From contig OY740786.1 in the NCBI GenBank assembly GCA_963514005.1, positions 87,606,001 through 87,670,000 of the forward strand: a DNA stretch of 64,000 nt. Direction: 5' to 3'. Of the stretch, positions 14,796 to 45,400 are shown one piece after another. Under the pieces are notes generated by a model. It had not been told where the DNA came from and searched no databases. It saw nothing but the letters and a program-made list of their open reading frames with translations. Within the stretch, counting starts at the first letter, position 1. Each line of letters opens with the position of its first letter. Origin of the DNA: Raja brachyura. Its lineage: Eukaryota. The translations under genes and the position numbers were made by a program.

Positions 14796-15482
14796 GGCCT
14801 TCCAGTGTCTCTATGCTGGAGTAAGCCTTGCGCCAGCTAGCTCCGTGGAAAAATGAAAAAAAAGGGAGAAAAAACGGGACCGCTGAAAACTTACCAGCAG
14901 CTTGTGTCGAAGGGTGCGTGACGTTATCAGACCGCGACGGCGGTTGTTTAATGTTGACCCAAAGAACTCCCCGAAAGTACAGGCAAGGAAAACCCGGGTT
15001 AAACAAGAAGTAGGCTCGAGCAAAGCCTCAACCTCAATTTCAGCGTCGTCCCAAGAAGAAATTTCTAAACAGGGTCAGAAGGTAAGACCTAAAAAAACGG
15101 AATGGACGAGTTATTTCAGAAGAAATATCTGTCATAAGGGAAGAACTGAACATTTTTAAAGAAGAAACATCAGATTCATTTCAGACTGTCCATACTAATA
15201 TCCTCGAAGAATTGTCTCCCTGGAAGGACGAAGTAAGTGGAAAAATAAACCGACATATGGAAGAGGTAAATGCTAAATTTAATAAATTGGAATCCAAGCT
15301 TAACTCTAAGTTGGATCCAGTTATTATTATAGTAAATCAGCATACTACAGCTATAACTGAATTAGAGTCAATTGCTCAGACAGGTGCTGACACTATGAAA
15401 AGGGTCTTAACTGAGACCAAGCATTTATCAGAATTATTGAATAACATTTCTGAAAAATGTATCGATTTGGAGGGATGCTCGA

Positions 15483-15643
15483 TGTAGTGTATTTGGGTGC
15501 TTGGAACTGACTTGAAAGAACACTCAGATACAGGAGTAAACTAACAAGCTTCTTTATTCCAGGACGCCACCTTGAGTCTCCCCCAGCGCATGCGTCCCCT
15601 CACACAAGACATAACATATGCTAATTATATCACATACATCACA
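15483..15643 (-). repeat. 3' LTR
   Basis: Direct repeat of 26120-26280; AATAAA on the minus strand; preceded on minus by PPT aaagggggagcag. Confidence 0.95.
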
Positions 15644-15657
15644 CTGCTCCCCCTTTA
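15644..15657 (-). promoter_or_regulatory. polypurine tract
   Basis: Minus strand taaagggggagcag directly abuts the 3' LTR. Confidence 0.85.
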
Positions 15658-15884
15658 ACTTGGAGGCCGGTAACACCATTTACATTATATACATGACACT
15701 GCTACCCCTTTAACTTGGAGGCGAATAACACCATTTCTATTACATTAAATATAATTGATTAACACACTGTTGCAAAATTATATTATTACAGTCATCTTAC
15801 ATTGCATCCTCACAACTGTAATAATCATATCTAAACTTAGCACATAATTTTTTCATTCCACTAAACGACATATATTACCCCTTG

Positions 15885-16400
15885 CTTTATGTGTTATCCT
15901 TTTCCGTTCCCTTCTGTGTAAAGTGTGCGCTCTTTCTAATCACTCTAGCCCTACCTGTAACTCTGCCTCTTCCCTTTTTAAATGTCCTAATCTAATTTGC
16001 AGATTTCTTCCTGTTCCTGATATTCAGCTAAAGTTAACATTTCCTCTGTTTCTGTTCCTTATTTGTAGGTGGGATCTGACACATGACTGCAGGTTTTCGT
16101 TTTCTAGCAGCTTCTTCTGTCGCTCAATTTCCTGGCGCTGCGTGTTTATCTGCTCTTGCTGTACAATAACATTCTGCAATGCATAACCATTTGTCCATTG
16201 CTCAGTGAAGGAGGCTCCATGCTGGACTATAGTGAAGTGTCCTAATCGCAATCGGTCCTGCATACTTTTGTCTTGACCGACAAGCCTCTCTTCTTTAGAC
16301 TTTTCTATTAACAGCTTTTTGCTCATCGTCACACATTTATTTAACCATTCTTTGTATCGTTTAAGCCTTTTCTGTTGTTCATCTATTTGTCTTAAATCAC
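15885..16400 (-). pseudogene. tlk2: captured intronless TLK2-like coiled-coil region (no kinase domain), frameshifted
   Basis: [61 protein letters not shown]; after frameshifts [22 protein letters not shown] and RLGHLKREEAE. Confidence 0.9.
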
Positions 16401-16409
16401 CTTTCTGGT

Positions 16410-17470
16410 TCTTCATCAAGAAGTAGGATCTGTATTGTCTTTACAATACAACAGTGGCTTTGATTTGTGCTCTGTATAGTTTTCTTACTACATAAGCACG
16501 GTAGTGAGACTGCACTACAACTGCTGTATAAATCAGTTTGAGGAAGTCTTTCGTATATCGTTTAAGCCTTTTGTATCATTTCAGCCTTTTCTGTTGTGCA
16601 TTTATTTTTCTTCTTAAGACGTTCCTATACCAACTCATACGGAGTACTGACTGCACTTTTACAGAGGCCCTCCTTTGCTTAACCCACTGCCTAACCACCA
16701 TACCCTTGTAGGCAGCTTGAATGGTAATAGTTGCATACCTCATTGACTGATATTGCACAAACTGGGAATGCCCTATTTTGCATGCTTTGTACCATCTCTG
16801 TATCGAAATGACTGCGTGTCGCATAGCTCTGTAGCGTACCCTTGGTATGCACGGTATGCAGCTTGCAGAGTGACTAGAGCCGCCTTTTGCATCAAGAAAT
16901 GTTTTCTTGTAATGCACACCATTATGACTGACTTAATATGGCGTGCTGCCTTGATTTTCTCAACCAATTCTCTGGCTTTAAACCTGCAGTAGAAGGGCTG
17001 AATACAAACCACTGCTTTTCTCAAACTATTATAATGTCTCACTTGGACATCTCTTATCTGGCAAGCTCTGTATCGTTGCTGTACCGCAATGGCAGACCAA
17101 CGTAGTTTCTTGAAATACTGATGCTGTTTATGCATCTGATAATAAATCTGTATAACCTTGGCAGATTTGTGCATGCCCCGCAATTGCTTTCGAACAAGGA
17201 TTCCTCGGTAGGCAGCCTGAAGCAGTACAACGCTGCTGTGTACCTTCATGTAAGTCTTGCGATCACTTTCCATTTGAAGGTGTGCCCTATAATGGGTTTG
17301 TACTATTATAGCTGCCAATCTCATTGCCCTGTATGGACGGTATACTCTGTGCCTTCTAAATACTGTTTGTATTACCGTTGCTGCCTTCTGTTTGTTCCGG
17401 ATCTCTCTCCGTATCTTCATACCCCTGAATGCAGCTTGAATAGTTAGGGTTGCCCTCTGGTTGGCAATGT
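16410..17470 (-). pseudogene. aspm: captured ASPM-like IQ-repeat region
   Basis: More than 12 tandem IQ motifs (IQAAFRG, LQAAYRG, VQQRYRA, IQRWYKA, IQAAYKG) at ~23/27-aa spacing, as in the large ASPM IQ exon; ORFs 16773-17777 and 16576-16917. Confidence 0.85.
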
Positions 17471-17689
17471 CCCTTTGCATTTGACTTTTGTTCCTTTGCC
17501 TTTGACCGTTGACTTGACCTTGACCTTTGTCACTTTGCCCTTGACCTTTGTCACTTTGCCTATTACCTTTGGCCTTTTTCACTTGACCTTCGTCACTTTG
17601 CCCTTGACTTTTGTCACTTTGCCCTTGACTTTTGTCCTTTGAGGGACTCCCTGCCCTCTTTAGTTCAGGCTCCTTGCCTCTGGATGCCC

Positions 17690-20600
17690 TTGGAGGTTTT
17701 GGCGAGAAATGAGCCATTAATGCCTGCTTACACTCCTCGTACATTTTGTCTGTGGGCTTTGCTGGCTGCAGTAACATACGTAAGGTCTGATAAACCTCTC
17801 TTCCTTTTTTAAATTAAAAAAAAAAAATCTTTATTTATTAGAGGTACCATAAGTTACATCAGTGTACATCCCATGTATATTATTGCAATCATTGTACCCC
17901 TTAATTTTTTAAGGCTTTAGAAAAAAAGAAAGAAGAAAGAAATATCAACAGAGAAAGTAGAGAAAGTGAAAAAGAATTGTGAAAGTGAAAAAGCGTGCCA
18001 GAGGGAAAGGGAACCCTTGGGCGAAGAGTTAGAGAAAGGAGATTAAGAGATAGATCCTGGAGAGGAGAAAAAAAAGGGAAAGAGAGAGAAGGAAAAAAGA
18101 AAAGCCAGTTACTTTATTATAAACATCGCGCAAAAGGAATCTACCAACTCAACAGTTTTTCTTCCCCCTTTACCTGACACCGGTACTTTTTTGAGGTATT
18201 CTTGCTCCTTATCCTTGTAGTAGATTTATAAATGCAGACCACATCTTATAGAAACAGTCTGATTTTCCTGCCAGTCTCATATCTTCCAAATGTAGTGTTT
18301 CAAACATAGTTGAAATCCACATATTAACTGTTGGTATAGGAGTATTTTTCCAGAATTTTAAGATTAGCTTTTTTCCTGTTATTAAGCTGTATTCAAATAG
18401 ATTATTTTGAAACACATTTAATTCAGGGCTATCGTCCGTTGTTCCAAAGATAATCCAGTCTGCTTTTGGAGTCAGTTTTATTTTAAATACTTTTGTGAAA
18501 ATTTCAAAAATGTCAGTCCAAAATTTTTGAATTTTTGCCCAAAATGAGTGCGCTATATTAGTTTCTTGACATTGACATTTATCACAAATAGGTGAGACAT
18601 TGGGAAAAAGTTTATTTTAGTTTTTGAATAGTATAATCTGTGTAAGATTTTAAATTGTATTAAAGTGTGTCTTACGTTAATTGAATATTTATGCACATTT
18701 AATAAATATTCTTCCCACCTTTTTTGGAAATTTTTATACTTAATTCTTTTTCCCAGTCTCTTCTGATACCTTCTGTTGTTGGTATTTCTGCGTTTAGAAT
18801 AATATATATATGATATTAGGTTTGTTGATTCAGCCTTTGTATTCATTACTTCTTCCAGTAAGTCTGGAGGCATAGTGTGATAATCTTGTGCGTATTTTTC
18901 CAGATAGTCACAAATTTGGAAATATTTAAAATACTGATTGTTTCCCAAATTGTATTTTAGTTGTAATTGTTTAAATGATAATAGTTTTCCCGTTTCATAC
19001 AAATCCCCGAAGGTTTTAATTCTGGCTCTTTCCATTGTATAAATGCTTTATCTATAATTGAAGGTTTAAACAAAGGGTTTTTACCAATAGGCGATAAGAG
19101 AGAAACATTTCTTAATTTTAAGTTGTGTTTTATTTGTTTCCAAATTCTAATTGTACTGTGTATAATTGGATTTTTGTTGTAATTTGTATTATTCATCGTC
19201 ATTGGTGAAAGAAGGATCGCTCCAATATTGCAAGGAGAGCAGTCCTCTTTCTCCATAATAATCCAATCCGGTTGCTGGGGAGAGTTATCCAGCAATTGGA
19301 TCATATTTCTAATATTTACAGACCAGTAGTAATACATGAAATTGAGGAGTGCTAATCCCCCTACTACTTAGGGTTTATTCAGATGAGCTCTTTGTATTCT
19401 GTGAGATTTATAATCCCAAATAAAATTTGTGATATCTAAGTCCAGTTTTTTAAAAAACGTTTTGGGTAGGTATATTGGAATTGATTGGAACAGATATATA
19501 ATTTGTGGTAGAAAAATCATTTTTATGGTGTTTATTTGGCCTATTAAGGCCATCGGAAGCGTTTTCCAAAATTTAATAAAGTTATATAGTTTCTTAAGTA
19601 GAGGGTTACAATTTGCGTCAAACATGCCTTGATATCTTCTAGTGATTTCGATACCCAAGTATTTAATTTTTTCCAAAGCTATTTTAAAAGGAAACTGTAA
19701 AAGATGTGTAGAATCTTTCAGTTTTATTGACATGATTTCACGTTTATTCCAATTTAGTCTATATCCTGAACATGATCCAAAGTCCTCTATTAAGTTTAAA
19801 ATATTTGGTATAGTAATATGAGGTTTTGTGATGTACAATAGTACATCATCTTGTATAATGATATTTTATTGTTGGAATATTTTGTTTTATATCCATGGAT
19901 ATTCGGATGAGTTCTAATTATTTCTGCCAGGGGTTCAATTATGAGAGCAAATAACAGCGGTGATAGTGAACATCCTTGTCTATTACCCCTTGACAATTGA
20001 AATTTCGTAGATAAATTATTGTTAGTTAATATTCTGCCCGTTGGCTTATTATATAATAATTTAATCCATAGAATGAAATTCTCTCCCAGTTGAAATTTTT
20101 GCAATACCTTGACCATATAATCCCATTCAACCTGATCGAATGCTTTCTCTGCATCCAACGATATAATTGATAGTTTTTGATCTTCAGTTTGGTGTGAATG
20201 CATTATATTGAGCAGACGTCTCAAATTATTAAATGATTGTCTCTTAGGGATAAACCTCGTTTGATCCGGATGTATTAATTTACTGGCATATTTACTTAGA
20301 ATTCCAGCTAGTATTTTCGCTAATATTTTTTGATCTGTGTTTAACAACGCAATAGCTCTATATGATCCGGGTTCTTCCACATCTTTATCTTTCTTAAGTA
20401 GTAATGTGATCGTGGATTCTGCTAGTGTTTCAGGTAGTATTTGTTCTTTGAAGGCATAAGTATACATTTTCTGTAGGCGAGGTGTAAATATGTCATAAAA
20501 ACTTTTTATATATGACTTTTATAAAATTCATTACTCAATCCGTCGGGACCTGGTGTTTTTTCATTTTTTAATGAGATTATTGTTTCTTCTATTTCCTTAT

Positions 20601-23600
20601 TTAAGATTTGTGTTCCCAATTCCTCTTGTTCCTGCAACTCTAGTTTAGGAAGGTTACAATTATCCAAGAACTCTGTAACTTTGTTGGTGTCCGTTGTCGT
20701 TTTAGATGTAAATTTAGATTGTAAATTCTTGTAAAATTATGCAAATCTTTTATTAATATCACTCGGCAAGGTCAATACTTCCCCTTTGTCTGATTTGATC
20801 TTTGAAATTGTGTGATCCTTTTCTCGTTTTTTTAACTGACGTGCTAGAGGTTTATGGGGCTTATCCCCAAATTCCAAATGTTCCTGTCCTATAATTTATA
20901 ATAATCTAATGACTTTCTCTGATAATAATTTATTTAATTTAAATTTCAGTATTATTATTCTATTATGTTTATCCGTAGTGGGGTCTTTAGCGTTTTCTAT
21001 GTCCAGTTGTCTAATTTGTTCTTCTAACAGTCTTTGTTCGTTCTTATTTTTCTTATTTTGAAAAGCTTGGTATGAAATTATAACGCCTCGAATAAATGCT
21101 TTAAAAGATTCCCATAATAGTGTAGGTGATATGTCAGGCGTATCGTTTATTTCGAAAAAAAGATCCATTTGCTGTTCTTAGTCATTCCTTCCATTTTTAG
21201 AAAAAAAGTTAGTGGGGAGTGATCTGAAATCGCATTTGAGTGGTATTTTGGTTTAGAAGTATGGGGTACTAATTTTGTATCCACCAGGAAATAATCTATA
21301 CGTGAATATGTCTTGTGTACCATTGAATAGAATGAGTAATCCCTGCCGGTCAGATTTGCAATCCTCCAGACATCTGTTATATTTGTGTTTTTTATATATG
21401 TGTTTAGAAGTTTGCTAGTTTTGGATTTCGTAATACCCCTCTGTTTTTGATTGGATTCATCTAAGTAAGGGTTTAAAACACAATTAAAGCCGATTATGAC
21501 ATTCTGGTAATTATATTCTGCAATTATATTCAAGATTTTATTGAAAAAATGCGGATTGTCAAAGTTGGGCGCATATATATTTACCAAGGTAATTGGGGTA
21601 GCATGGATCTCCCCGGTAACTATCAAATATCTCCCGTCATTATCTGTTAAGGTAGTTTTGGGTTTAAATGGAATGCCTTTGCGAACAATAATAGACGTTC
21701 CTCTAGATTTCGACGTGTATGACGAGTGAAAAGTTTGCCCTATCCAGTTCGCCCTCAATCTAGCTTGATCTTGAAGATTAAGGCATTTCTTGTAAGAAAG
21801 CAATATCTGTGTTTCAGCTGAGCTAGAGCTCATCTTTCAGCTGAGCTAGAATCTTACCCCTTTTAATGCGTTCGTTAACACCCCTAACGTTACAACTACA
21901 AAATGAGATTCGTCACTGTTTATTTTGGTTATTGTCTTGCATTTTGAATAGATTTAATACCTATGTATCTTGCGGCGCATCCGTACCTCAGGTCTTAAAT
22001 ATTGGGGGATCATTTACCCTACAAAGTTCAAATTAGTAGATTCCCTTTGCGATTGTCCTTAAATAGAAAAAACACACATGTGAATAAATGTGATAATAAT
22101 TTTTTAAAAACTAATACAAGTGAAAATACAGTGTTCGAACTTGTCGGCACTGTAACAAGTGACCCACCTGTTGGTGGGAGAAAATATTTTATCGACTTCC
22201 GTTGTCGATATAAAACAAACAAATAGCTCCTCTAGACGTTCCTCTAGATTTCGACGTGTATGACGAGTGAAAAGTTACTCATTACTCTATTACTCATAAC
22301 ATACTGGAGCGGGACCGGTTTACAGTATATATATCCATTTCATCAATATTCCCGGATATAACTAACATTTTTATCTACTATATGTGAAGCGTATATTTTA
22401 ACCTCGGAAATCATCAACTGTTGGTTGAAGGGGTTAACCTGTTACTGGCTCCTGGAACTGAGCCAGGAGCCCGCCTCTGCCCCTCATGCCCCAGTTATAA
22501 ATCTACTTGAGATTTATTAAGTTAAATTATAAATATTAATTTGTAAATCACCCTTTCTACATTTCTGATTAACATTCATACTATTTCTATGTTAGTATTC
22601 TATGTTAATATTGTTACAAATGTTAATTCTATACCATTTAGGTTATCATTAAATCTCATATACAACAGTAATTGCTAAGCCCACAGTCTGTTGTTGAGCT
22701 CTTCATTTCGGTGGTTATCTTTTTTTCCGGTTCCCTTGGGACAGAGTTAGCATTCCACCAATAAGACGTCTAGACAAAGTTCCTTCTTCTGGCAGCACGC
22801 CACCATTCAGGGTGAAATGGTAAAAAGAGAGAGTATCCATACTGTCCGACCTTTCCAGCTAGTCCTTGTGTTCCACGATGGTTAGAGCATATTTGTATGC
22901 CTCCTCGGGATTTGTGAACGATTTTTGCTGTTCCTTGGAGATACGCATTTTAGCTGGGTAGTAAACAGCACATCAAACCTCCTTATTTCCTTGGAGAGCC
23001 TGCTTTGCCTTAGAGAACTGATTTCGCTTTTGCATAATTTCATAGGGATAGTCCCTGAAAATTTTAAAAGTTGTTGCACCATACTTCAGAGGCACTCCAT
23101 ATTTGATATTACTCATAACCTCTTCCACATCAGAAATGTCCCGGAATTTCACAATAATCTGTCATGTATGTTCTGAACCAGTATGAGATTTGGATTTAAA
23201 TCTAGGAACTCGGTGTGCCACTTCAATTTTCGGTAGGTTAGGGAGCTTAATAGCTTCTTTAATTAAGCCCGCAGCGAACTCGCGAATGTTATCTCTCTCA
23301 GCTCCCTCTGGTATGCCAACTAATCTTAGATGTTGGCGTCTCGAAACGAGCTTCCAGATCCAGGCTTTTTTTTTGTCTGAAACTTTAGGCAGCTGAGTCG
23401 CCATCCGTCGTGGAGCAAGGTCTTGTTCTGACCTCACATTCTTCATCTCCTCCACCATTCTTGCCATCTCTTCCTCCATCTCGTGCATTGATGACATACA
23501 GGTTGAGACAGTGTCCAGCACATCACCGAGCTTCTTCGTGGTGTCTTCTTCACCCTTATCAATTCTCTCCGATAGTTCATCTCTCACATCGTCAATTCAT

Positions 23601-24293
23601 TTATTTATAGTGCGAATCGAATCCTTCACAGACTCAATAATTTTCTGTTTACCAGCAGTCATATTCAGCGTCAGCTTTTCTATCTTTTCCATCATCACTC
23701 CCATCATCTGTTCCATCTTTTTTCCATCCACCTTTACATCTATCAGTTCACTTACCGAAAGCTTTAATTCTTCAAATTCTTTGTCCTTGGCCAAATCTGT
23801 CTTAGATCTTGTAGCCATGTCGGAAATCACCTTTTCTTCAGAAGCCACTTCAAAAATAAGTTCTTCAGGCTTCGTCTGGCTTCCCCAGGAGTGTTTTGTA
23901 ACTGTTCTCTGAGTGCTCTTACCAGGAGAAGAATTTTTCATTTAAAGTGTTTTAAGCCTCCGTTAAAATCACAGCGCTTACTGATGACGTCATCAGTGCG
24001 ACGTCCAGAGGCTCCGGTAAGTTTTTTAAATTGGTCCCGACCAGTAGACCCGATTTTAACGCGAAGAATCGTGAATTTTATGGAGCGGTGCTATGTGCAG
24101 CATCTGTTATTGTAACATGGCTCCACCGGAAGTCATAACCCTCTCTTCCTAAGCCTAATATGAACCATGCTCTCTTCTTTTCCTCTGCAGCGATATCATT
24201 GGAAATGAAACAAGCCTCCAGGACTTCGGTCCATTTCTCAAAATTACACCCAGAATCTAACTGGGGCACGTTTCCTACAATTTGAAAAGCCAT
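17690..24293 (-). pseudogene. Mag-clade-like gag N-terminus split by the L1 (24293-24140 joined to 17794-17690)
   Basis: Rejoined: MAFQIVGNVPQLDSGCNFEKWTEVLEACFISNDIAAEEKKRAWFILGLGREVYQTLRMLLQPAKPTDKMYEECKQALMAHFSPKP, matching the recalled W..Y.ERL..F..N.I...KK...L...Y..L..L..P.KP....Y..L...L..HF.PK pattern. Confidence 0.8.
17806..24139 (-). mobile_element. full-length (~6.3 kb) but frameshifted L1-clade LINE nested in the gag
   Basis: 11-bp TSD cctctcttcct (17795-17805, 24140-24150); 5' end gacttccggt; ORF1 (SRRQHLRLVGIPEG, IEVAHR); inter-ORF region; APE (21147-21833), RT (19796-20467, RQGCSLSP) and C-terminal fragments; A-rich tail. Confidence 0.93.
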
Positions 24294-26099
24294 GCTACCT
24301 GTTGCTATTCAGGTGCACTATATTCTGTTCTCTCACGGCGTTTCCTGCACTGGACGTAATCCTTTTACACACTAAGAAGTGATCCAGTCCACTGACTATT
24401 ACCAATTCATATAATAATAGATTTATACTATTAACCAACATTTAATGTCAATAGCCATTAAGAACATTTTAAACCATATTCCTTCTATGCACACAGATTT
24501 ACTATTAACAGTGACCAATGCATTACATTCAAACAGTCCTGCTTTTACTGTGGTCATGCATTACATTCACAGAGGGCTTTTATTATGAAGTATTTCACAG
24601 CTCCAGCTTGTGGCCTGTGGCCTGGTGCATCCTCGACCTCTCGAGCTATCCCCACTGGTACCTTTGCTGATGGCCTCATTGGACCTCCACTTTTGCTGCT
24701 TTTGTTGGTTCCCGCGGGCTTCACCGTTACTTTTGCTGCCGCTGGCTCGCTGCCAAGTCGACTCCTGCTGCTCTGCTGACTTGCCTGCTGTCTCCCTTGG
24801 ACGCCCTGCGGAAGGTAAGTCGCTGCTGCTGGTCCCACTGCTCAGCTCATCGCTGGCTCACCGTCACGCCTGGCTGCTCAGCTCATCAGGTCTGTGCCCC
24901 GCTGTCGGTGGCTGGGTAAGCATTGTGTCCCACTTCTCTCACACAGACCCTCTTCTCTCTCTCTGGCGGCTTTCTCTCGCGACTGGGCTGAAGTGCTTGA
25001 GTGCTGTATGCTGCTTCTCTTGTGTGGACCCAGTCTTCGCTCGGGGCCGGATTTCCTCTCATGTCCGGGCTTTCCCCGCTCTCGGCCGTCTCTTGCGACC
25101 GTGCGCTGTGTCCCGCTTATCTCGTGAGGCCTGGTCCACTTCTCTCTCGCGGTCAGCTTTCCCACTCGGTCGGTCCACTTCTCCTGCATGGACGGACCCT
25201 CTTTTCTGCTCACGGTCGGGCTGACTCTGCTCCCGACCTGGCTTCCTCTGCTCGCGGTCGTCTCCTGCGACCGGGCTTTCTCTCATGACCGGGCTGTCTC
25301 TGCTCCCGGCCTGGTTGACTCCATTTTTGTCGGTGGCTTCTCCGGACCTGTCCGTGGCCCTCACTCGACGTTGGTGGCGGCACCTGGGCCTGGCTGTGGG
25401 CTTCACAGCCCTGGAAAATGTTCAAAGTCGGTGGCGGTCTCCTGGGCCTCTTCTGCCCCTTTGCCATGGCTGCACGGCCCTGGAAAGCGTTCCAGGTAAG
25501 TTGACACCATCGCTGTCCTGCTGGTTAGGCTTCCAGCTTTCGGCTGTGTTCTTCGGTGACACTTACTTACTGCCCCACTTGTTTTCCTTGCTTCCTGTTC
25601 CGATCTTTCTTTTCTTTGGCGCCAATTCAAAACCATTTGGCGCCAAATCTTTTTGCTTAGTGCCGTTCCACTTTGTTTCCAAACACAACCTCTTTTTAAC
25701 TTTTTTTTCTCTTGACAGCCTATTTTCTTTGTTCTTTTCTGTTCTTTTATCCTCGTTGCATCGTTGTCCTTGTTGTGTGTTTTGGTGTAACAATTCACCT
25801 AAAACATAGCTGTACAAAGATTATTCAGCTTGAGGAATTCGACAAAAAAAACTCAGTCTAAAATGTGTAACAATCCGAAGGACGACGTCTTGCCACATAG
25901 ACACAACATAGAGATAGCCTGACAAACTCGCCGAATTGTACAGCTGATGTTTTAAACTACAGTCCCATGCTTAGAGGGATCTGCAGGCCTCTCATGTCCA
26001 TCTCGCAAACAACTGCGACACAACTCCGTATCTACTGTTTGAACTGTTAAACAATCCTGCGTGTTGCAAAACAGTCCTGCGGGTGAGTTCACAAACTCC

Positions 26100-26117
26100 A
26101 TCCCATCCTCGTCGCCA
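26100..26117 (-). promoter_or_regulatory. primer-binding site, tRNA-Ser(GCT)
   Basis: Minus strand TGGCGACGAGGATGGGAT, 2 nt after the 5' LTR; complementary to the recalled vertebrate tRNA-Ser(GCT) 3' end ATCCCATCCTCGTCG-CCA. Confidence 0.85.
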
Positions 26118-26119
26118 AT

Positions 26120-26280
26120 TGTAGTGTATTTGGGTGCTTGGAACTGACTTAAAAGAACACTCAGATACAGGAGTAAACTAACAAGCTTCTTTATTCTAGG
26201 ACGCCACCTTGAGTCTCCCCCAGCGCATGCGTCCCCTCGCACAAGAAATAACATATGCTAATTATATCATATACATCACA
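26120..26280 (-). repeat. 5' LTR
   Basis: Direct repeat of 15483-15643, followed on minus by the PBS. Confidence 0.95.
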
Positions 26281-29200
26281 CTCGAAACGTCAGAACCTGA
26301 GAATTGTGGGAATCAAAGAGGGCAGAGGGAAATAAAAACCCTCATGAATTTGCTGGCGATCTTCTACAAAAGGTTTTAAATTTAGATACAAAGACTCTAC
26401 TGGATCGTGCACATAGGGCATTGAGATCACGTCAGAACAATGCCCCCCCCCCCCCCCCCCCCCCCCCCGAGACATTTGATATTGAAGGTGCATTATGACC
26501 ACGATTTGGAAAACATCTTGACGAAAATTGCGGCAACAGTAACCTATCATTTGAAGGGTAACAATATTCGTATTTTCAGAGACTATCCCGCAGAGGTTGT
26601 CAAGAGAAGAGCGCTTTTCAACGAGACAAGAGGAATTCTCAAGAAGATTTCAAACCTATGATTTGGACTGTTGTATCTGCAAAACTCCTACATGCATAAG
26701 GAACACTTCTTTACCGATCATAAGAAAGCATTTGAGTTCGCCCAGGACATTGAGAAATCAGCGGAATGATGAACAACATCTCCACAGGGTCATCACTTGG
26801 CGGAGAACAAATGGAACTGTAAGTTGTTATACTTAAATGATAGTTGAGCAGTTATCTTGCTATTAATTTACAACTACTATTATTATTTAGTAGTAAATAT
26901 TAATAATTATTACTAACTATTATTAATTTATACTAGTAAGATAAGAGTTAGTTACAAATAAGAAATGTAATTAATACCTAATGCAGGGATTTCATTTTAT
27001 TCTAATTTTTAATTTTTTTTTTGAATAATTAACTAATATTGGACTAATATTTTTTAACTAATATTTCTGACTAATAAAAAATTCCCCGTCACTGAATTAA
27101 AAATCCATCAGACCTAATTCTCTCTTCTTTTCCCCCTCCCTTTTACAAATTGTTATTACTGAGATTTCTTTGTCTTTTAAAACACGGAACTAGTACTATT
27201 TTTTAAAAACAAGGCTACAGAAGCCCTTAGAATTTTAGCCACGCTAGTGTGGCTATCACTAACTACACTTACTGTAGTTGTAGTTTTTCTATCTTTTTTG
27301 CACCCTACTAACTTTTTATCTTCCTATCTTAGCTTTAATTATATAAATATTAAATTTAATTATAAGATTTTTTTAATGAGATATGTTTGAGATGAAGATT
27401 TATCAAATTTAAAATTCACCAATCCTGTGTTCGGGTGGAATACCAGATTCAAGGTGTTGAACCATTTGCTTCTTTACAGGCCACCCTATCTATATGATGC
27501 AAGATGTTAAAATGAAAATTGGGGGTGAAGGAATTACATTTTGTTGTTGGAATGTCAAGGGTATTAATGAACCAATCAAGAGAGGTAAAGTATTAGCACA
27601 TTTAAAATCACTCAAAGCTGATATAATATTCCTTCAAGAAATTCATCTTAAAAATGAAGCACAACATAGACTGAAAGCAAAATGTATTGTTAAAACATAT
27701 CATTCCTCATTCTCCCATAAGTCTACAGGGGTTGCAATTTTAATCCGTAAGGGTATACCTTTTAAACATGTGTCAACTATTGCGGATATTGATGGTAGAT
27801 ATATTATATTGGTGGGTGAATTATATTCAGAAAAAGTAATCTTCCTTAATGTTTATGGTCCAGATTTTGATAACCCACTGTTTTTTAATAAAACACTTAA
27901 TACTATTCTGGGACTTACACAATACAAGTTGATAATTGGTGGTGACTTAAATTGCACATTAGACCCTTATTTAGATAGATCATCAAGGCAAAGGAAAATA
28001 AAATCCAAGTCAAGTGAATTATTAAATTCATATATTAATACTACCAATATCAAAGATGTCTGGAGAATAGAAAACCCTACTGGATGAGAATATTCATTTT
28101 ACTCACCAGTACATAAAGCCTATTCAAGAATCGACTATTTTTTAGTGGACTCCAAACTTATCCCATATACATACAATTCAAAATATGAAAATATTATAAT
28201 TTTGGTTCATGCACCTTTAACATTCATGGTTAAATTAAAAGGTATAGATGAGAAGCAGGTACACTGGAGACTTAATCAAATTCTAAATGATAAAGCGTGC
28301 TGTGAATACCTCACAACACAGATTAATATGTTCATTCAGATGAAGGATCTCCCAGAAACCCCTGTCTCCCTTCTGTGGGAAACATTTAAAGCATTTGTAC
28401 GAGGAGCGCTTATCTCCTCCCAAGCCTTTCACAATAAAAAGAGCCGAGCTAAACAGCATGAACTAGAAATGGAAATAAGGCAACTAGATATTGAAAACGC
28501 GATAGCACGCTCTATGATAAAACACAACAAAATTGCTGCACTTAAATATGTTAAATCACATATATTCAGACCAAATTATAATACTTTATCAACATACTAA
28601 ACAATTTCAATTTGAATTTGGTGATAAACCACAAAAGTTGCTAGCTCCTCAACTTCGCAAGTTAGATCAGGAAAAAACAATTCATAAAATCAAATCACAT
28701 ATGGGAGAAACACTATCATTGCCCAAGGACATCAATGACAGATTTTTGAAATATTCTCAGACACTCTACTCATCCAAAAAAGCAGACTGTTCTATGAGAA
28801 TGGAAATTCTTAAAGAAATTTAATCTTTCAGGATTAGATCTGAGAGAGAGCGAATTATTAGGTGCTGAAATTTCAATGAAAGAAATTGAAGAGACCATTA
28901 GATCCTTGAAAAATGGAAAGGCTGCGGGCCCTGATGGTCTAAATTCTAAATTTTATAAACAATTTAATGATTTGATCTCCCCATGCCTACAGACATTATA
29001 TAATTATGCTTTCACACAGCAGGTACTGCCAGAAACTTTAAATGAATCAACAATAACACTTATACCAAAAATTGATAAAGATCTTGACCCTGGCTCAAAT
29101 AGAGCAATAGCTCTTTTAAATACCGATCAGAATATATTAACAAAACTCTTAGCCCACAGATTAAGTTTAATAATTCACAAATTAATACATCCTGATCAAA

Positions 29201-31413: not shown

Positions 31414-32439
31414 AGCAGTGAATGCATTTTGTTGTACACCACATTACTCTCACACTGCCAACAACTTTTTTTTTAATTATGTTTTTGTACTGACATCTTG
31501 TCCATGTTTCATAAAGTGCCCACAATGTCAACTTAACTTCTTTGAAGTTGTGACTTGTTAAGTTCTGCATCCCACGTGAGAAAACCGACCGACCTTTGGT
31601 TCATCATTTCATCCAAATAAAGGCACATATTTTAACATGGCAGCACCCCCTCAATTCTACATCCAAATGTCAGCCTAGAAAATTGTGCTCAAGTCATTGG
31701 AATGGGTCTTGAAGTCAAAAGTGCTTTGAAATGTGAAGATATGTTGCAAATGGTTTTAGTTTAATGATATTGTGAAGTAATGTCAGAGTAACAAATTGGA
31801 ATCATACAGATTTTAGATTGTTTTTAGCCACCAAAGTGTAAGCTATGGAGTGTAAAGGAAAGCCAAAGGGTTGGTCCTCAGTGAGAATGATGAAGAGACG
31901 ACCAAGGACACCGTTTATAGGAATACTGTGGCGTCAGCCACTTAAGCTCGAACCCTCGTCAGGAGAGGGCGGGCACACGACGTCATGGGCAGAGGGAGTG
32001 TCCTGGTACATAAGCTCTCTCACCACGAGATCCACCAGGAGTTTCTACCGGTAGCTGAGCCCGAGGGCACAACCTCGCTCAGCTACAACAACTCTACATA
32101 TAGTTAGCGCACCCACTATATGTGTGACAACAGAATAAAGAACCAGTTGCACCAACCTGATGTCTCCTCTTTATTCGCCACGTATGGTGCTGCTACATTG
32201 GTGACCCCCGACTGTCCAAATTTAAATTTGGGCTCACCTGAAGAAGCAGCCTCGGGAGACCTGATGTCTGCAGCCGGCTGCCCAGCCCTGCAGAACTACG
32301 CTGCCGTCAACCAGGCCCTGCAGTGAGGTATGTCGCCGCCTACCCACCAGCTGCTGCAGGAGCTGCGAGCATTGCAGTCTCCTGCCCACGGCAGCCCCGA
32401 CCCACGTCTCCAGGCCCCAGCACCGGTCCAGGCCTCACT

Positions 32440-32710
32440 GGGTCTCCAGGCCCAGCACGGCTCCAGGCCTCACCGCGGCTCCAGCCCCTGCACCGGACCC
32501 GGCTCCAGGCCTCACCGCGTCCCCAGGCCCTGCACCGGACCCGGCTCCAGGCCTCACCGCGTCCCCAGGCCCAGCACCGGACCCGGCTCCAGGCCTCACC
32601 GCGTCCCCAGGCCCTGCACCGGACCCGGCTCCAGGCCTCACCACGTCTCCAGGCCCAGCACCGGACCCGGCTCCAGGCCTCACCATGTCTCCAGGCCCTG
32701 CACCACGCCT
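32440..32710 (+). repeat. 42-bp tandem repeat, ~6 copies
   Basis: Unit ggctccaggcctcaccgcgtccccaggccctgcaccggaccc. Confidence 0.9.
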
Positions 32711-33294
32711 GGCCCCGCCGACCGCTGCACCTGAAAAAGTGGGCTTACCTGAGGCGGCCGCCGAAACCGCCCTTCAGCTCCTCGCCGGCCTCCAGTCACC
32801 AGGTGATTCCTCTTCACCCGGCCGGCAAAATGGCCGCGGCGCCATCTTGAAACGGGCGGCTTCCGACTACAAACATGGCTGCCGCCGGCCGGAAGTGCAC
32901 TACGAACTTACCTGGCCGCCGTCTACAGCGCCACCTTCTGGCCGGATGCCGTCCCTGCAGCTTCACTGCCAGCAACAGCGCCACCGTCAGTTCGGCTGCT
33001 GTCACTGCAGTCTCACCGTCATCCACAGCGCCACCTTCCGGCCGGATGCCGTCACTGCAGCCTCACCACTGTCCACAGCGCCACCTTCCAGCTGGATGTT
33101 GTGGCTGCACGATGAACAATGGACAATTTGAAATTTAGACACTGGACACTAATTGTTTTTTTTTCACTGTTCATGTTTGTGTGCACTGCAATTGGTTTGT
33201 ATATTGTATTTGGTTTACCCCCCATCGTTTTTGGGGGCCGTGTGTCACAGGACACTCTCCCTTAGCTGGTCAAGGAGATGCAACCGTGTTTCTT

Positions 33295-33650
33295 CAGTCT
33301 CGTCGCACCCCTCGGTACATCGGGATCTCACACGCAGAGCGTCAACTGCGCCCGTGTAGAGCACCGTCCCGACCCACGCCCGGGGTGTCCCAGACCTCTT
33401 CTGTCCGGCGGCTTCTACATCCGTCTCCTCGCACCACTCGGTACATCGGGATCACCCACGCAGAGCGTCAACTGCGCCCGTGGAGCCCTCCGTCCCGACC
33501 CACGCCCGGGGTGTCCCAGACCTCTTCTGTCCGGCGGCTTCTGCATCGGTCTCCTCGCACCCCTCGGTACATCGGGATCGCCCACGCAGAGCGTCAACTG
33601 CGCCCGTGGAGCCCTCCGTCCCGACCCACGTCCGGGGTGTCCCAGACCTA
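33295..33650 (+). repeat. 126-bp tandem repeat, ~2.8 copies
   Basis: cggtacatcgggatc recurs at 33313, 33439 and 33565. Confidence 0.9.
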
Positions 33651-34184
33651 CATGCAGGAGCTTCCCTTGACCAAGCTATTCCTTCCTCCTGTTCTGGGGG
33701 GGGTCCTGTGGCGTCAGCCACTTAAGCTCGAACCCTCGTTAGGAGAGGGCGGGCACACGACGTCATGGGCAGAGGGAGTGTCCTGGTACATAAGCTCTCT
33801 CACCACGAGATCCACCAGGAGTTTCTACTGGTAGCTGAGCCCGAGGGCACAACCTCGCTCAGCTACAACAACTCTACATATAGTTAGCGCACCCACTATA
33901 TGTGTGACAACAGAATAAAGAACCAGTTGCACCAACCTGATGTCTCCTCTTTATTCGCCACGTATGGTGCTGCTACAATACGGACTATGTGTTGTATAAT
34001 ATCTACATTCTACATACAAGGCATATTAATCCCATGGGTGTGTTGTACACAACAGTTCATGCTGAAGGTAGCCTGTCAACAAAATTCCATTTATATGCAA
34101 GACTGAAGGGATCATGTGTGAAACGACCTGCTATTCCACGTTTCTTTGTTCAAAAGTCTCACCATTCTGCTTTACACTTTACAT

Positions 34185-43300: not shown

Positions 43301-45400
43301 TCCCTTTTTTTACCTATATCGTTGGTACCAATATGCACCACGACATCTGGCTGTTCACCCCCCCCCTCCAGAATGTTCTGGAGCCGTTCAGTGACATTCC
43401 TGACCCTTGCACCAGGGAGGCAACATACCATCCTGGAGTCTCGTTTGCGGCCGCAGAAACGCCTACCTATTCCCCTTACAATTGAATCCCCTATTACTAT
43501 AGCCCTTCCACTCTTTTTTCTCCCCTCCTGTGCCGCAGAGCCACCCATGGTGCCATGAACTTTGCTGCTGCTGCCTTCCCCTGATGAGCCAACTCCCCCA
43601 ACACTATCCAAAATTGTATATCTGTTTAGGAGGGAGAGGACCGCAGGGGGCTCCTGCACTACCTGCCTACTGCTACGCTGGCTAATGGCCACCCGTTCCC
43701 ATTCTGTCCGCTTAACTTTTACCTGCGGTGTGGCCAACTCACTGTACGTGCTATTCACGAGTTTCTCAGCATCGTGGATGCTCCAATATGAATCCAACTG
43801 CAGCTCCAATCGTTCAATGCGGTCTGCCAGGAGCTGCAGCTGGACACACTTCCTGCAAACGTAGTCACCAGGGACACCAACCATATCCCTGATCTCCCAC
43901 ATGTTGCAGGATGAGCAAACCATGGGGCCGATCTCAAATGACATGGCTTGCCCCCAAATTAAATCAACTCACTCACACTATAAAAATCGTAATCCTTTAA
44001 ACCAACCTTTACTAAAAAGCACTGTACCCTTTGCTCACTGTACCCTTTGCTCACTGTACCCTTTGCTCACTGTACCCTTTGCTCACTGTACCCTTTGCGC
44101 ACTGTACCCTTTGCTGACTGTACCCTTTGCTGACTGTACCCTTTGCTGACTGTACCCTTTGCTCACTGTACCCTTTGCTCACTGAACCCTTTGCTGACTG
44201 TACCCTTTGCTGACTGTACCCTTTGCTGACTGTACCCTTTGCTCACTGTACCCTTTGCTCACTGTACTCTTTGCTCACTGTACCCTTTGCTCACTGTACC
44301 CTTTGCTGACTGTACCCTTTGCTCACTGTACCCTTTGCTCACTGAACCCTTTGCTGACTGTACCCTTTGCTGACTGTACCCTTTGCTCACTGTACCCTTT
44401 GCTCACTGTACCCTTTGCTCACTGTACCCTTTGCTCACTATACTCTTTGCTCACTGTACTCTTTGCTCACTGTACCCTTTGCTCACTGTACCCTTTGCTC
44501 ACTGTACTCTTTGCTCACTGTACTCTTTGCTCACTGAACCCTTTGCTGACTGTACCCTTTGCTCACTGTACCCTTTGCTCACTGTACCCTTTGCTCACTG
44601 TACCCTTTGCTCACTGTACCCTTTGCTCACTATACTCTTTGCTCACTGTACTCTTTGCTCACTGTACTCTTTGCTCACTGTACCCTTTGCTCACTGTACC
44701 CTTTGCTCACTGTACCCTTTGCTCACTGTACCCTTTGCTCACTGTACCCTTTGCTCACTGTACCCTTTGCTCACTGTACCCTTTGCTCACTGTACCCTTT
44801 GCTCACTATACTCTTTGCTCACTGTACCCTTTGCTCACTGTACCCTTTGCTCACTATACTCTTTGCTCACTGTACCCTTTGCTCACTGTACCCTTTGCTC
44901 ACTGTACCCTTTGCTGACTGTACCCTTTGCTGACTGTACCCTTTGCTCACTGTACTCTTTGCTCACTGTACTCTTTGCTCACTGTACCCTTTGCTCACTG
45001 TACCCTTTGCTCACTGTACCCTTTGCTCACTGTACCCTTTGCTGACTGTACCCTTTGCTGACTGTACCCTTTGCTGACTGTACCCTTTGCTCACTGTACT
45101 CTTTGCTCACTGTACTCTTTGCTCACTGTACCCTTTGCTCACTGTACCCTTTGCTCACTGTACCCTTTGCTCACTGTACCCTTTGCTCACTGTACCCTTT
45201 GCTCACTGTACCCTTTGCTCACTGTACCCTTTGCTCACTGTACCCTTTGCTCACTGTACCCTTTGCTCACTGTACCCTTTGCTCACTGTACCCTTTGCTC
45301 ACTGTACCTTTAACTCACTGTACCCTTAATGCAAACCAGGGTTGCACCCAATCAGCTGCTTCCTCCAGTCCGCTTCCACCAATCAGTGGCTTCCACTAGA
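40398..45400 (-). mobile_element. CR1 LINE with intact 5' end, missing its 3' terminus
   Basis: ORF1 43102-43944 (CxxC-CxxC, leucine zipper, SGNH esterase GDS/GTND); ORF2 APE (42550-42933, 41381-42562) and RT (40434-41390), each broken by frameshifts. Confidence 0.93.
44020..45325. repeat. 16-bp minisatellite (ctgtaccctttgctca)n, ~80 copies, upstream of CR1 ORF1
   Basis: Directly visible, with a few single-base variants. Confidence 0.97.

Follow-up and report, generated by a model that had tools for sequence, protein, structure and literature searches.

A pol-less, Mag-like Gypsy family of skates with pieces of aspm and tlk2 mRNAs in a long frame behind Gag

The stretch of DNA analyzed here (the window) comprises 64,000 nucleotides (nt) of Raja brachyura contig OY740786.1 (positions 87,606,001 to 87,670,000, assembly GCA_963514005.1), which is C6 among our contigs. 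It contains one decayed copy, on the minus strand, of a large nonautonomous family of long terminal repeat (LTR) retrotransposons of Gypsy, Mag-like type, in which pieces of two host genes, aspm and tlk2, stand in place of pol. An earlier note, made from the sequence of the window alone, had claimed complete cis signals for such an element, and all of them were located: an LTR pair with TG..CA ends that differs at 5/161 positions, the target site duplication (TSD) CTCGA at both element ends, a primer binding site (PBS) that pairs with the 3′ terminus of host tRNA-Ser(GCT), and a polypurine tract (PPT). ARAGORN called this tRNA in 3/3 fetched loci, out of 24 matches. Once a nested L1 is subtracted, the element proper measures 4,453 bp, in agreement with the earlier estimate of about 4.5 kb, and its interior is wholly accounted for by leader, gag, cargo, and 3′ untranslated region, with no pol. 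The copy itself is interrupted by stops, frameshifts, and the L1.

The cargo (15890-17490) had been described as about 1.6 kb of ASPM- and TLK2-like sequence in the sense orientation of the element, and this is what we found: a four-piece mosaic of ASPM, 49 nt of TLK2, ASPM, and TLK2, 88-90% identical to host aspm and 87-93% to host tlk2. The aspm donor is the 3′ end of the giant host aspm exon, on contig C10. The tlk2 donor is a set of five consecutive host exons on contig C34, joined intron-free, so that introns are gone at 4/4 tlk2 exon junctions; the aspm piece lies within one exon and is therefore uninformative on intron loss. The cargo protein matches elasmobranch TLK2 at 82% (E 4e-42), and the host tlk2 exons have 88-100% protein identity to skate TLK2 over most exons. 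Identity of the cargo to host tlk1 is 75-77% only, and tlk1 was ruled out as donor, with 43/43 copies nearer tlk2. Two segments separate the Gag N-terminus from ASPM: another piece of gag and a tandem repeat with 21-nt units. A contribution of a third host gene to this linker was ruled out, the linker being gag plus an ASPM-derived repeat. As the earlier note had claimed, no poly(A) or TSD of its own is present at the cargo joints. The cargo directly adjoins element sequence, and words of 4-8 nt are shared at the gag deletion, the gag-aspm joint, and both aspm-tlk2 joints (word lengths uncorrected for chance). Neither the TLK2 kinase domain nor the ASPM CH domains are in the captured pieces. 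Within the giant aspm exon of the host (L072, C10), a 657-nt unit is duplicated, with 90-96% identity among units. Because several of them match the 5′ part of the cargo, the exact donor unit is uncertain.

The cargo is not peculiar to this locus. Searches covered a genome of 2.70 Gb in 1,647 contigs, and first-look candidate counts, which are lower bounds and not copy numbers, were 644 for the LTR, 327 for the cargo, 351 for Gag, and 224 for the aspm-tlk2 joint. That joint was spanned, at 93-100% identity, by 40/40 scored places, and the LTR-PBS junction had 53 genome matches at ≤1 mismatch (control, 0). Two LTRs were present in 21 of 26 fetched loci, with a perfect 5-bp TSD in 10 (9 different sequences) and one mismatch in 3; nine further two-LTR cargo loci yielded one perfect TSD, two or three near matches, and three LTR-sharing tandems. 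The LTR pairs of the 11 perfect-TSD copies diverge by 0.6-8.7% (median, 4.3%). Copies L125, L139, L127, L069, and L083 are LTR-sharing tandems, in which the flank is PPT or PBS. Among 20 Gag matches, picked mostly for long open frames from 150 scored, 17 had ASPM, 1 a long repeat array, and 2 were of the parent type described below; of eight low-identity Gag matches, four had cargo and four were of parent type. In one copy (L134, on C109), the 21-nt linker repeat has expanded behind gag to an array of >6 kb, a minisatellite born within the element. Segmental duplication was ruled out as a general source of copies: a single same-flank pair was seen (L046/L048, identical to L086/L087), and one member was left out of the counts. 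A one-off insertion of the cargo after integration and delivery by the nested L1 were likewise ruled out, because the cargo occurs in other copies that lack this L1 and have different TSDs; the L1 is missing from this gag site in 29 other cargo loci. The transducing, pol-less, multicopy family that the earlier note proposed is thus borne out. Three findings had been named beforehand as speaking against it: no match to ASPM or TLK, a TSD or poly(A) belonging to the cargo, and absence of the cargo from all other copies. None of these was encountered.

The family extends beyond this genome. RefSeq protein XP_055489032.1 of Leucoraja erinacea (the little skate), labeled isoform X1 of an ASPM homolog, is a Gag-linker-ASPM fusion of this LTR family, in a model of 290 amino acids (aa) only. 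No other chimeric protein was found among 338 candidates and the best 150 of 635 matches. In public sequencing runs under six organism labels, 0.32-0.42 of the cargo words are present (20/23 rows with some; 11 studies), and the run for label F covers 27/30 bins of a full copy. No RNA run is listed among the public runs with cargo words. Four runs were examined as contigs, two probably of DNA, one of unknown kind, and one guessed to be RNA; the last gave low-depth element pieces in 21/30 bins, none spanning the element, and speaks neither for nor against expression.

A pol-bearing relative of the cargo family, L137 (the parent), has gag, protease (PR), reverse transcriptase (RT), RNase H (RH), and integrase (IN) by Pfam matches, in the Gypsy order PR-RT-RH-IN. 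Its PBS corresponds to the same tRNA-Ser, and its PPT is alike. The LTRs of L137 are 71-74% identical to those of a young cargo copy and 95% identical to each other, the latter within the range of the cargo copies; L137 is broken and contains another insertion. The parent LTR has 72 genome candidates, and the L137 integrase has 38 rows at 69-100% identity (about 30 places) among 119 scored. No env-sized frame was found in the one parent locus examined in full, where the last pol frame ends about 340 nt short of the 3′ LTR. Two zinc knuckles, the first with a spacer of 3 residues, are present in the parent and the oldest cargo copies and gone in later ones. Mag-lineage elements have a Ser (or Leu) PBS, a 5-bp TSD, and a short LTR according to PMC3286476 and two zinc knuckles in Gag (PMC2577118). 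Probable membership in this lineage fits the tRNA-Ser PBS, the 5-bp TSD, LTRs of <200 bp, the two knuckles, and the domain order of the parent; the cargo family departs from Mag elements in having host cargo in place of pol and, in later copies, no knuckles. At 14.8-15.7 Mb on contig C55, parent-type LTR matches recur at a spacing of about 20 kb with equal scores, which suggests a tandem segmental array.

Older copies reveal the steps, all in frame, by which the family took shape. In the oldest, which retain the zinc knuckles, gag has an internal deletion that keeps the frame and runs directly into ASPM; L150, L151, and L160 have a single aspm-to-tlk2 passage, and in L149 and L155 the aspm-tlk2 joint is tandemly duplicated. 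In later copies, the duplication is short of one aspm repeat, the knuckles are gone, the 21-nt repeat is expanded, and the third tlk2 exon is frameshifted. In a tree against tlk1 and tlk2, of the kind that the earlier note had suggested, the 43 copies group as a single clade next to tlk2 (support 100). The knuckle-keeping copies are the first to branch and nearest to the host, and the later copies are one clade (support 98). TLK2 identity to the host drops with time, from 92.5% in the oldest copies to 89% in later ones. The copies are recombinant mosaics and fall into at least two sub-lineages, between which LTRs and leader are strongly turned over (75-96%). One capture history fits all copies.

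We propose that part of the capsid gene was lost from a Mag-like Gypsy element, whose RT, during reverse transcription, switched templates, at short shared words, onto co-packaged aspm and tlk2 mRNAs, so that pol was replaced; the junctions are observed, and the mechanism is modeled on PMC5131818. The product retained LTRs, PBS, PPT, and leader and would have been copied in trans by the pol-bearing parent, presumably acting as helper, and the cargo family appears to have outgrown that parent roughly 7- to 9-fold. Successive master generations, as read from the older copies, passed through junction duplication, deletion, knuckle loss, repeat expansion, and a late frameshift near the 3′ end. On statistical evidence, replicating masters were selected for one long frame that opens at the gag ATG and runs almost to the 3′ LTR, perhaps because translation over most of the RNA was needed for its stability and its delivery to particles. 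Once inserted, copies would have decayed neutrally.

The support comes from the behavior of the frame. The gag-aspm phase is preserved in 31/41 copies although the spacing ranges from 111 to 658 nt, and it is intact in 7/8 older copies. At the next four joints, phase is preserved in 38/41, 38/39, 38/40, and 40/40 copies; at the sixth, past the shared frameshift, in 1/24. This frameshift is found in 35/41 copies, and shared frameshifts are confined to the last 200 nt of the cargo. Upstream of it, CpG sites aside, every stop and frameshift stays below a frequency of 15% in a set of 50 copies; the commonest stop is a CpG codon, in 9/48. Private changes comprise 138 stops or frameshifts per 889 substitutions, a rate at which 9.8 breaks are expected among the 63 shared substitutions (frequency, 15-85%) from gag to mid-TLK2. 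None was seen (P 6e-5).

Selection on amino acids, which the earlier note proposed to follow through the ratio of nonsynonymous to synonymous substitution rates (dN/dS), was detected in only one part of the cargo. In codon models (L049, a near-twin of L041, was left out), in-frame TLK2 had a dN/dS of 0.41 on internal branches versus 1.18 at the tips (p 0.009), or 0.45-0.50 versus about 1.1 with older copies added (p 0.014-0.032). Past the frameshift, the values for TLK2 were 1.18 and 0.99. ASPM and Gag were without significant constraint: for ASPM, 0.65 versus 0.97 (p 0.07), and 0.73 versus 1.00 with older copies; for Gag, 0.92 versus 1.11, and 0.93 versus 1.03. Tip values overall were 0.97-1.18, and branch lengths sum to 0.25 for internal branches versus 1.84 for tips. 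With all CpG masked, nonsynonymous-to-synonymous (N:S) counts in TLK2 were 3:8 at mid-frequency versus 140:36 among private changes (p 0.0005); without masking, the synonymous excess is weak (p 0.03). The ASPM counts, 32:11 and 560:168, are equal in proportion. At 43 ASPM codons where copies departed from the host residue, stingray ASPM agrees with the host in 15, with the copies in 16, and with neither in 12. Refreshing of one sub-lineage from host tlk2 mRNA is disfavored as the source of the synonymous excess, because near-fixed amino acid differences are interspersed in both later sub-lineages.

We consider it probable, if by no means secure, that the element family kept its long frame open and that the cargo is mainly translatable filler behind Gag, with weaker added selection on the TLK2 coiled coil. 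RNAs with long untranslated tails undergo decay, and two observations favor a need for translation in cis: the frame persists even as most residues drift, and frameshifting was tolerated nowhere but near the 3′ end. Several points weigh against this reading. Filler alone leaves the TLK2 dN/dS of 0.41-0.50 unexplained. The ASPM constraint is a trend only (p 0.07-0.12 over internal values of 0.65-0.73), and none was detected in the Gag N-terminus (internal dN/dS 0.92-0.93). The shared-break test is marginal for stops alone (P 0.04), and there may be assembly errors among the private frameshifts. Since copies are recombinant mosaics, tree-based tests are weakened. None of 46 copies with ≥300 aligned codons is free of breaks (median, 4); inserted copies are broken today, which counts against present-day function. 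The helper dependence claimed in the earlier note is plausible insofar as a pol-bearing relative sharing PBS and PPT exists; all those seen are broken, the 38 integrase rows contain no open frame of >571 aa, and young cargo LTRs are 25-29% different from parent LTRs (71-76% alike). The parent family would be a candidate for the actual helper.

The TLK2 signal leaves room for a functional fusion protein, which we regard as possible but doubtful: the coiled coil may be an oligomerization module for a capsid-less Gag, or a kinase-less decoy that binds host TLK1/2 and loosens germline repeat silencing, with the IQ array as spacer or calmodulin sponge. The low internal dN/dS of in-frame TLK2 (tips, 1.08-1.18; p 0.009, 0.014, and 0.032), its disappearance past the shared frameshift, and the CpG-masked counts are as such a protein would predict, yet the region has only 97 codons, four regions were tested so that the corrected p is borderline, the excess without masking reaches p 0.03 only, twelve nonsynonymous differences from the host are near-fixed in later copies, and the Gag part has no constraint. 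The captured piece also begins, presumably, partway into the first coiled coil. In favor again, CC1 is required for TLK2 dimers and TLK1 binding (PMC6023931), and TLK depletion in human cells leads to more satellite and some endogenous retrovirus RNA (PMC7408502). In its fullest form, to which we give a similarly small chance, the lineage swapped half its capsid and all of pol for host modules and was selected for a Gag-IQ-coiled-coil protein, whose TLK2 part bound Tousled-like kinases or drove assembly as a counter-silencing or assembly tool, making a parasite nearly tenfold over its helper across skate species.

That the cargo was a neutral passenger we think unlikely. It would be filler of handy length, in phase as coding shared words tend to be, with few master generations and little time for breaks; the equal ASPM counts, the short internal branches, and the fact that some copies with deleted cargo spread or persisted agree with this, but it does not predict the lack of shared breaks, the preservation of phase through later rearrangements and repeat-length changes, or the restriction of shared frameshifts to the end of the cargo. 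Conflict at the RNA level seems very unlikely: host-like sequence would camouflage the element or yield small RNAs against tlk2 or aspm, like the piwi, aub, and nxf2 captures of Drosophila telomeric elements. Host identity near 88-92% is close to the median of about 90% for such captures, which also came with higher copy numbers (PMC13534243), and a camouflage idea appears in PMC13317346; this explanation predicts neither frame retention nor synonymous excess, and host identity in TLK2 declines over time. Hardest to credit is a chimeric retrogene kept by the host, its transcript repeatedly re-copied, with selection on the fish and not the element. It would account for the open frame and the TLK2 constraint, and annotation treats the little-skate copy as a protein-coding isoform, but that model is short, none of the 46 copies is intact, LTRs and leader are strongly turned over, and there are at least two sub-lineages, with mosaics.

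Retention of the long frame by the element itself also sets the family apart from known systems. LTR-mediated retroposition of one or several mRNAs is known in metazoans, including zebrafish and chicken (PMC5131818), and those retrocopies likewise have partial spliced mRNAs of two parental genes in sense orientation within a discontinuous LTR element, microsimilarity at the joints, no poly(A) or TSD, and re-retroposition as nonautonomous elements. The cases described are, however, young, few-copy loci, whereas the skate family has hundreds of candidates, several master generations and species, and a Gag fusion frame kept open. Maize Bs1, with host gene pieces in an LTR element, a translated chimeric frame, and switch points common to all copies (PMC5131818 and PMC13317346), differs in its 1-5 copies (PMC5131818), three donors, and plant host and has been interpreted as a host gene; the skate family is a parasite of vertebrates with a high copy number, and every copy sampled is broken. 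The Drosophila telomeric retroelements that capture genes resemble it in having host pieces of about 90% identity in every family copy and in outnumbering noncapturing relatives (PMC13534243), as the cargo family outnumbers its parent, but they are non-LTR elements with piRNA-gene captures acting via small RNAs and not LTR elements with an in-frame Gag fusion. Template-switch capture is thus already known in animals and maize; what is new is scale, persistence, and frame retention. The remark of the earlier note that such a family was not recognized as described holds for this family in the literature searched, but is too strong for the capture process. No publication on the family was found in a search outside of which lay subscription journals, Repbase, and Dfam, and the searched parts of PMC3597677 gave no ASPM or TLK match.

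The earlier note also drew an analogy to gag-onc capture. Acutely transforming retroviruses carry gag-onc fusions of spliced host sequence and are helper dependent. The skate family shares with them the in-frame Gag N-terminus joined to spliced host sequence and a presumed helper dependence. It lacks env (the parent, too, is without an env-sized frame), any kinase or other catalytic domain, and the ASPM CH domains; it has been inherited through the germline over a long time, with no evidence of transformation. Nothing was found that ties the cargo to proliferation, and the analogy in that sense is unsupported.

The retained open frame suggests that the stolen pieces mattered for the spread of the element. 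A multigene retrocopy can turn into a long-lived, high-copy vertebrate transposon family and is not just a one-off, and here the series of intermediates is datable. With hundreds of copies, a parent family, and a built-in control in the sequence before and after the shared frameshift, the system is a direct test bed for whether captured host sequence raises element fitness. Were the TLK2 piece to work as a protein, a transposon would here be served by a stolen chromatin-regulator domain, which is rare in animals. In practice, skate aspm and tlk2 annotation and read mapping are contaminated by copies, as in the naming of XP_055489032.1 as ASPM.

The layout of the window copy is given in the table. 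The element is the middle level of a three-level nesting (window 15086-28087), in which it lies within ORF1 (the first open reading frame) of one L1 and holds another L1 within gag. The fused frame stops at 16024-16026, after the family-wide frameshift in the third tlk2 exon.

Table. Parts of the window copy, in element order (window positions)
Feature	Position	Strand	Remarks
5′ LTR	26120..26280	-	161 bp; 644 first-look genome candidates, 40 scored at 96-100%
PBS, tRNA-Ser(GCT)	26100..26117	-	18 nt
Long 5′ leader, degenerate repeats, native to element	24294..26099	-	69-79% identity, in patches, to L136, a relative with gag and protease
gag N-terminal domain, first part	24135..24293	-	ATG at 24293; DUF7041 weak; 78-79% to parent gag
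Nested L1, later insertion into gag	17806..24134	-	poly(A); 16-nt TSD, one mismatch; RVT_1 match at E 2e-27, weak endonuclease match
gag N-terminal domain, second part	17697..17805	-	
Basic gag piece from further downstream, in-frame join after ~350-nt internal deletion	17632..17696	-	75-82% to parent gag
21-nt tandem repeat (7 codons), derived from first ASPM codons	17468..17641	-	length differs among copies
Captured aspm piece a, IQ repeats, 3′ part of giant exon	16616..17490	-	87.8% over 879 nt to host aspm; Pfam IQ; ASPM protein matches
Short tlk2 piece and an 18-nt duplication, left over from an internal tandem duplication	16558..16618	-	
Captured aspm piece b	16395..16557	-	89.6% over 163 nt to host aspm
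tlk2 piece captured from spliced mRNA (five exons, coiled-coil region)	15890..16400	-	corresponds to skate TLK2 residues ~195-373; kinase domain absent
3′ untranslated region	15660..15889	-	219/246 nt identical to parent-type locus
PPT	15644..15659	-	nearly identical tract in parent L137
3′ LTR	15483..15643	-	161 bp
5-bp TSD	15478..15482	+	second copy 26281-26285; within ORF1 of older L1

Rfam gave 0 matches across window positions 14000-36000. A small second LTR-type element lies at 31928-33978, with 272-nt repeats 99% alike, TG..CA ends, a 4-bp TSD, PBS-like and purine-tract-like ends, and a GC-rich tandem-repeat interior. Further along, 44020-45327 is a 16-nt tandem array of about 82 copies with 96% matches.

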